A stretch of DNA of 64,000 nt. Origin: Escherichia coli (GTDB lineage: Bacteria > Pseudomonadota > Gammaproteobacteria > Enterobacterales > Enterobacteriaceae). Positions 43,101 through 45,065 of the stretch are shown piece after piece. Made by a program: the position numbers and the translations under genes. Numbering within the stretch: the first letter of the stretch is position 1; the number at the start of each line of letters is the position of its first letter. The notes under the pieces were generated by a model. The model was not told where the DNA came from. It worked only from the letters and a program-made list of their open reading frames with translations, and made no database searches. The DNA lies in the NCBI RefSeq assembly GCF_003334305.1, contig NZ_QOWS01000011.1; one strand, given 5' to 3'.

Positions 43101-45065
43101 GTGAGCATGGATATAAGCGATTTTTATCAGACATTTTTTGATGAAGCGGACGAACTGTTGGCTGATATGGAGCAGCATCTGCTGGTTTTGCAGCCGGAAG
43201 CGCCAGATGCCGAACAATTGAATGCCATCTTTCGGGCTGCCCACTCGATCAAAGGAGGGGCAGGAACTTTTGGCTTCAGCGTTTTGCAGGAAACCACGCA
43301 TCTGATGGAAAACCTGCTCGATGAAGCCAGACGAGGTGAGATGCAACTCAACACCGACATTATCAATCTGTTTTTGGAAACGAAGGACATCATGCAAGAA
43401 CAGCTCGACGCTTATAAACAGTCGCAAGAGCCGGATGCCGCCAGCTTCGATTATATCTGCCAGGCCTTGCGTCAACTGGCATTAGAAGCGAAAGGCGAAA
43501 CGCCATCCGCAGTGACCCGATTAAGTGTGGTTGCCAAAAGTGAACCGCAAGATGAGCAGAGTCGCAGTCAGTCGCCGCGACGAATTATCCTTTCGCGCCT
43601 GAAGGCCGGGGAAGTCGACCTGCTGGAAGAAGAACTGGGACATCTGACAACGTTAACTGACGTGGTGAAAGGGGCGGATTCGCTCTCGGCAATATTACCG
43701 GGCGACATCGCCGAAGATGACATCACAGCGGTACTCTGTTTTGTGATTGAAGCCGCTCAGATTACCTTTGAAACAGTAGAAGTCTCGCCAAAAATATCCA
43801 CCCCACCAGTGCTTAAACTGGCAGCCGAACAAGCGCCAACCGGCCGCGTGGAGCGGGAAAAAACGACGCGCAGCAATGAATCCACCAGCATCCGTGTAGC
43901 GGTAGAAAAGGTTGATCAATTAATTAACCTCGTCGGCGAGCTGGTTATCACCCAGTCCATGCTTGCCCAGCGTTCCAGCGAACTGGACCCGGTTAATCAT
44001 GGTGATTTGATAACCAGCATGGGGCAGTTACAACGTAACGCCCGTGATTTGCAGGAATCAGTGATGTCGATTCGCATGATGCCGATGGAATATGTTTTTA
44101 GTCGCTATCCCCGGCTGGTGCGTGATCTGGCGGGAAAACTCGGCAAGCAGGTAGAACTGACGCTGGTGGGCAGTTCTACTGAACTCGACAAAAGCCTGAT
44201 AGAACGCATTATCGACCCGCTGACCCACCTGGTACGCAATAGCCTCGATCACGGTATTGAACTGCCAGAAAAACGGCTCGCCGCAGGTAAAAACAGCGTC
44301 GGAAATTTAATTCTGTCTGCCGAACATCAGGGCGGCAACATTTGCATTGAAGTGACCGACGATGGGGCGGGGCTAAACCGTGAGCGAATTCTGGCAAAAG
44401 CGGCCTCGCAAGGTTTGACTGTCAGCGAAAACATGAGCGACGACGAAGTCGCGATGCTGATATTTGCACCAGGCTTCTCCACGGCAGAGCAGGTCACCGA
44501 CGTCTCCGGGCGCGGCGTCGGCATGGACGTCGTTAAACGTAATATCCAGGAGATGGGCGGTCATGTCGAAATCCAGTCGAAGCAGGGTACTGGCACTACG
44601 ATCCGCATTTTACTGCCGCTGACGCTGGCCATCCTCGACGGCATGTCCGTACGCGTTGCGGATGAAGTTTTCATTCTGCCGCTGAATGCTGTTATGGAAT
44701 CACTGCAACCCCGTGAAGCCGATCTGCATCCACTGGCCGGCGGCGAGCGGGTGCTGGAAGTGCGGGGTGAATATCTGCCCATCGTCGAACTGTGGAAAGT
44801 GTTCAACGTCGCGGGCGCGAAAACCGAAGCCACCCAGGGAATTGTGGTGATCTTACAAAGTGGCGGTCGCCGCTACGCCTTGCTGGTGGATCAATTAATT
44901 GGTCAGCACCAGGTTGTGGTTAAAAACCTTGAAAGTAACTATCGCAAAGTCCCCGGCATTTCTGCTGCGACCATTCTTGGCGACGGCAGCGTGGCACTGA
45001 TTGTTGATGTCTCCGCCTTGCAGGCGATAAACCGCGAACAACGTATGGCGAACACCGCCGCCTGA
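43101..45065 (+). CDS. cheA: chemotaxis histidine kinase CheA (654 aa, GTG start; internal in-frame ATG at 43392 corresponds to the CheA-short start)
   Basis: P1 phosphorylation site (…[13 protein letters not shown]…), kinase and CheW-like domains; ATG at 43392 is codon 98. Confidence 0.95.

Follow-up and report, generated by a model that had tools for sequence, protein, structure and literature searches.

Known internal starts and their relation to the locus

The chemotaxis gene cheA of Escherichia coli has two alternative initiation codons, and an endogenous ribosome binding site drives the synthesis of its shorter product, CheA-short (PMC2716512). Translation of CheA-short begins at codon ATG-98, and the substitution CheA-M98L eliminates the protein (PMC7696710); its beginning at Met-98 and its binding of CheZ through Leu-123 and Leu-126 were also reported (PMC7750401). 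The short protein lacks the first 97 residues, His48 included (PMC3180615, PMC7750401). Both CheA proteins and the loss of the short form in M98L were described for derivatives of E. coli K-12 RP437; in the M98L background, CheZ was expected no longer to be concentrated at the receptor array, and CheZ-GFP imaging confirmed the expected localisation patterns (PMC7696710). The ratio of CheA-long to CheA-short shifts with growth, from 4:1 to 1:1 (PMC1447658), and the same account of CheA-short is given in general terms in PMC1447658, PMC11005335, and PMC12350097. The TRAINSPOTTER supplements, containing genome-wide initiation data, hold no mention of cheA.

We analyzed a window of 64,000 nucleotides, the whole stretch of DNA under study, in which an ATG inside cheA had been proposed in an earlier note as a second translation start yielding CheA-short. 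The published initiation at ATG-98, its loss in M98L (PMC7696710), and the placement of the start at Met-98 (PMC7750401) support this proposal; ATG98 is the textbook second in-frame start of E. coli cheA, and the feature is already known. Compared with start(L)/start(S) of K-12 cheA, the locus comprises the same gene, the same ATG-98, and the same upstream sequence, with no difference at the site. The CheA encoded here presumably differs from that of K-12 at two residues far downstream of ATG98.

Short CheA forms in other Enterobacteriaceae are attributed to McNamara and Wolfe 1997 in the passages of PMC3579733 and PMC8745638 that cite this work. ATG98 and the block CTGTTTTTGGAAAC..ATTATG are common to all 80 sequences that we compared, whereas the SD-like element differs: it reads AAAGA (Lys95 AAA; −3.3 kcal/mol) in most of the other species and AAGGA (−5.4 kcal/mol) in E. 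coli. A likewise N-terminally nested protein pair, IF2 alpha and beta, is produced from infB via an internal in-frame start (PMC11005335, PMC12350097). The infB product is unrelated, and the truncation in cheA takes away the catalytic phospho-acceptor and exposes a surface to which CheZ binds.

Genomic context, coordinates, and the main start

Positions 43000–45100 of the window matched many complete E. coli chromosomes at 100%, with motB, cheA, and cheW annotated beneath the match, and the neighbourhoods of the matching E. coli SE11 and strain A7 had the gene order flhDC-motAB-cheAW-tar-tap-cheRBYZ-flhBAE. The window is the flhDC-motAB-cheAW-tar-tap-cheRBYZ region of an E. coli chromosome. 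The cheA reading frames with their starts and sequence elements, as well as cheZ, are located on the plus strand.

The full-length open reading frame of cheA, encoding CheA-long, extends from a GTG start at 43101 to 45065 (654 aa), as supported by the annotation and by the score against the NCBIfam profile NF007835 'chemotaxis protein CheA' (1342.5 bits, cut-off 793). Since 43101 plus 97 codons gives 43392, the ATG at 43392–43394 is codon 98 of cheA and lies in frame, just as had been claimed. The frame of CheA-short (43392–45065, 557 aa) shares its reading frame and stop with CheA-long; it scored 1112.8 bits against NF007835, with profile positions 96–670 aligned, and corresponds to the protein described in PMC7750401 and PMC7696710. 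The codon of the phosphorylation site His48 (CAC, 43242–43244; PMC3180615) is located upstream of ATG98 and hence belongs to CheA-long only. The claim that CheA-short lacks the phosphorylation site found within the first 97 residues is accordingly sound and is also backed by the literature (PMC7750401, PMC3180615).

The SD of the main start, start(L), is GAGG at 43090–43093, inside the 3′ end of motB. This element, the motB stop TGA (43094–43096), the GTG of cheA (43101), and the codon-3 ATG (43107) all fall within 20 nt (43090–43109), an arrangement typical of translational coupling. 'Codon 1' is GTA in six loci of Photorhabdus, Xenorhabdus, or related bacteria, so that CheA-long must start at codon 3 there; the codon-3 ATG is invariant (81/81). 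Residue 3 is also the first residue covered by the NCBIfam CheA profile.

At 44100–44115, cheA contains AGTCGCTATCCCCGGC, one of the five sites in E. coli genes rated by FSscan as most prone to +1 frameshifting; in a reporter, its frameshifting was reported to be measurable (PMC2790909). It is unchanged in our window from the sequence ranked by FSscan.

Sequence signals at codon 98

The 12 bases preceding ATG98 (43380–43391) are ACGAAGGACATC, identical to the letters quoted for the GGA-rich upstream stretch in the earlier note. They contain the SD-like element AAGGA (43383–43387), separated by 4 nt from the downstream ATG98 (−9 to −5) and dependent on Lys95 being encoded by AAG; an additional GGA is present further upstream, at 43376–43378. 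We scored each ATG, GTG, and TTG codon of cheA by pairing positions −20 to −4 with the anti-SD. With a duplex dG of −5.4 kcal/mol, codon 98 ranked third among the 18 in-frame ATG codons and seventh among the 49 in-frame ATG/GTG/TTG codons. A ribosome binding sequence is therefore present upstream of the internal ATG; its match is only moderate, and codon 98 does not stand out by the SD scan on its own.

The predicted unpaired probability of codon 98 took rank 63 among 649 codons and rank 3 among the 49 in-frame start-like codons. Local AT content and predicted unpaired probability across cheA did not clearly set codon 98 apart. From the sequence alone, codon 98 stands only weakly above chance, and it is the comparative evidence that lifts it above chance. 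The inference made in the earlier note thus leaned on prior knowledge, which matches the mixed basis declared there.

Conservation of ATG98 and of the SD-like element

A locus scan with one genome per species yielded 80 cheA loci with Enterobacterales-type names or labels and 62–96% identity to the query protein; Salmonella was absent from this set. Codon 98 was ATG in all 80 distinct Enterobacterales-like sequences (80/80), a count that may be inflated, since ETKDIMQE, one of six patterns used in the search, includes Met98. A pattern-free HMMER search with query residues 1–140 against 1.84 billion representatives gave a picture of Met98 that agreed with the pattern-based one: position 98 was Met in 7/7 intact P1 domains with at least 80% identity, whereas in P1 domains below 65% identity it was mostly Leu (90/117), with 17 cases of Ile and just 5 of Met. 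As position 98 is mostly Leu in distant P1 domains, Met98 is a derived, clade-specific start that took the place of an ancestral hydrophobic residue. This fits the use of M98L strains in chemotaxis experiments.

Of 5379 complete E. coli genomes, 5345 carried an identical copy of the 80-mer at 43352–43431, K-12 derivatives (for example, NEB Turbo) among them; a control 80-mer surrounding His48 was identical in 3617 of 5379. Judged by this identity, the Lys95 codon AAG (43383–43385) is nearly universal in E. coli. Among the 80 distinct sequences, by contrast, Lys95 was AAA in 76, giving AAAGA with a predicted −3.3 kcal/mol against −5.4 kcal/mol for AAGGA, and it was AAG only in E. coli and three other species, beyond which the AAGGA element is not conserved. 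From Lys95 AAG, the internal start of E. coli is expected to be stronger than that of most relatives, and AAGGA is probably a lineage-specific strengthening of the ribosome loading region. Thus, the AAGGA to which attention had been drawn is indeed present before ATG98, but among the species compared it is nearly confined to E. coli, and the conserved nucleotides are located further upstream.

Two database proteins (P0092, P0094), 91% identical to E. coli CheA, start at the residue aligned with Met69. Their apparent starts are probably not real and stem from gene calling on truncated contigs.

Synonymous constraint upstream of ATG98

Synonymous variation along cheA was measured as codon entropy in 9-codon windows, with only those columns considered in which the amino acid was conserved. 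The gene-wide minimum was found at codons about 85–99, and the 12 lowest of the 403 windows all fell between codons 82 and 101. The next separate region of low variation comprised codons 1–9, at the main start, and doubles as an internal positive control. After normalisation by the mean of each amino acid, the minimum stayed at codons 88–100 (z = −4.0), and a window as low as the observed one at codons 86–97 arose anywhere in 3 of 5000 permutations. The position of the minimum and its rarity under permutation point to selection acting at the nucleotide level on the internal initiation region.

The strongest constraint was found in codons 88–97 (43362–43391), which read ATC AAC CTG TTT TTG GAA ACN AAA GAT ATT in the alignment, with the consensus continuing as ATG CAG after codon 97. 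Codons 89, 90, 91, 93, and 97 each showed the lowest variation among all columns of cheA with the same amino acid, and Leu92 was the sole column among the 64 conserved Leu columns with the rare TTG as the majority codon. The conserved part upstream of ATG98 is thus the block AUCAACCUGUUUUUGGAAAC..AUUAUG, which lies further upstream than AAGGA; it is both U-rich and A-rich and includes a conserved GGAA at 43376–43379 (−16 to −13). This block would be the region on which ribosomes load.

Proposed mechanism and the CheZ partner

The ATG at 43392–43394 is almost certainly start(S) of E. coli cheA, at which internal initiation gives CheA-short. Our analysis itself established the coordinates and frame, the SD-like element, conservation across the clade, constraint at the nucleotide level, and the presence of the partner features; the two proteins, the M98L effect, and CheZ binding come from the papers cited above. 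We infer that both CheA proteins are also made in this particular strain.

According to the proposed mechanism, ribosomes would load on an internal initiation region within the CheA-long frame of the motA-motB-cheA-cheW mRNA; this region is AU-rich and has AAGGA at −9 to −5, with the conserved UUUUUGGAAAC upstream. Initiation at 43392 would give the 557-residue CheA-short in the same frame, devoid of residues 1–97 of the P1 phosphotransfer domain. As His48 is among the residues lost, CheA-short could not be phosphorylated. The kinase core would be retained together with the C-terminal part of P1; the rest of CheA kept in the short form comprises domains P2 to P5.

The predicted short product excludes His48 and retains the CheZ contacts Leu123 (TTG, 43467–43469) and Leu126 (CTG, 43476–43478; PMC7750401), both invariant in the CheA sequences compared. 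The partner gene cheZ is encoded in the same window (51388–52032; NF008368, 364 bits); its product contains the stretch RWDDWFADP and, within it, Trp97 and Phe98 of the apical loop of the phosphatase recruited by CheA-short (PMC7696710). Since Leu123 and Leu126 of the retained P1 tail bind CheZ, CheA-short would anchor this CheY-P phosphatase at the receptor cluster.

Alternative explanations

A variant of the proposed mechanism concerns the element on which initiation depends. The internal start may rely mainly on the conserved 30-nt block, with its invariant UUU-UUG-GAA, the rare TTG Leu codon, and GGAA at −16 to −13, and not on a conventional SD. The block would then serve as an SD-poor standby or enhancer site or form a weak regulatory hairpin that sets the ratio of CheA-long to CheA-short, and the AAGGA of E. 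coli would be a recent lineage-specific strengthening. We consider this variant rather unlikely; if it is true, evolution would have tuned the long:short ratio, which would differ from one enteric species to another.

The 30-nt constrained block could also have an additional regulatory role compatible with start(S) at ATG98, either as a hairpin or as a binding site of a small RNA or protein that sets the long:short ratio. The constraint reaches about −30, beyond what an SD needs, and the reported growth-dependent variation of the ratio, from 4:1 to 1:1 (PMC1447658), would fit such a role. In the candidate hairpin, UGUUUUUG (43369–43376) is predicted to pair with CAAGAACA (43395–43402), leaving the SD and the AUG in an 18-nt loop. 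This pairing is compatible with 97% of the cells in the 78 distinct sequences; however, the observed values were attained by 195 of 500 shuffles, and compensatory changes in the paired positions were found in none of the 78 distinct sequences. The stem is weak (−5.3 kcal/mol, several G-U pairs), and the region folds no better than the shuffled sequence (z = +1.0). The putative hairpin around the SD and the AUG is thus neither supported nor refuted by the alignment, and a regulatory role of the block, although in line with the extent of the constraint, found no support in our tests and seems distinctly improbable to us.

Met81 (ATG, 43341–43343), preceded by GAGGTGAG at 43331–43338, is very unlikely to serve as the internal start or as a further one. 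The GAGGTGAG element is the strongest internal SD match (dG −6.5 against −5.4 kcal/mol for codon 98), and Met81 is shared by 76 of the 80 sequences; yet the other 4 have Ile or Leu at this position, and GAGGTGAG is not conserved, other species having GGCGA, GGTGA, CAGGA, and similar sequences. The predicted accessibility of Met81 is lower (rank 206), and the synonymous constraint is centred on codons 85–99 and not upstream of codon 81. Met81 was rejected as an alternative start because of its unconserved SD and the published assignment of the start to codon 98 (PMC7696710, PMC7750401). No start is known at codon 81.

That Met98 is an ordinary methionine of P1, with the SD-like sequence a by-product of Lys-Asp codons and short CheA formed by proteolysis, is extremely unlikely: the SD match at codon 98 is unexceptional and Met3, Met23, and many other P1 residues are likewise invariant in the protein, but abolition of CheA-short by M98L (PMC7696710) contradicts a chance methionine combined with proteolysis, and a chance methionine is also at odds with the location of the most constrained synonymous sites of cheA upstream of codon 98 and with the confinement of Met at this position to an enteric-like clade, Leu being found elsewhere.

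Significance

The internal start at ATG98 is a classic case of two proteins from one bacterial gene, correctly re-identified here, and brings no new biology. The comparative results serve as a clean positive control when internal starts are sought through synonymous-site constraint: the constraint peaks immediately before ATG98, an ancestral Leu has given way to Met98, and AAGGA is almost confined to E. coli. They also point to simple synonymous mutants with which to study what sets the ratio of the long to the short form. For the chemotaxis system of E. coli, the short form puts the phosphatase CheZ beside the kinase at the receptor array.
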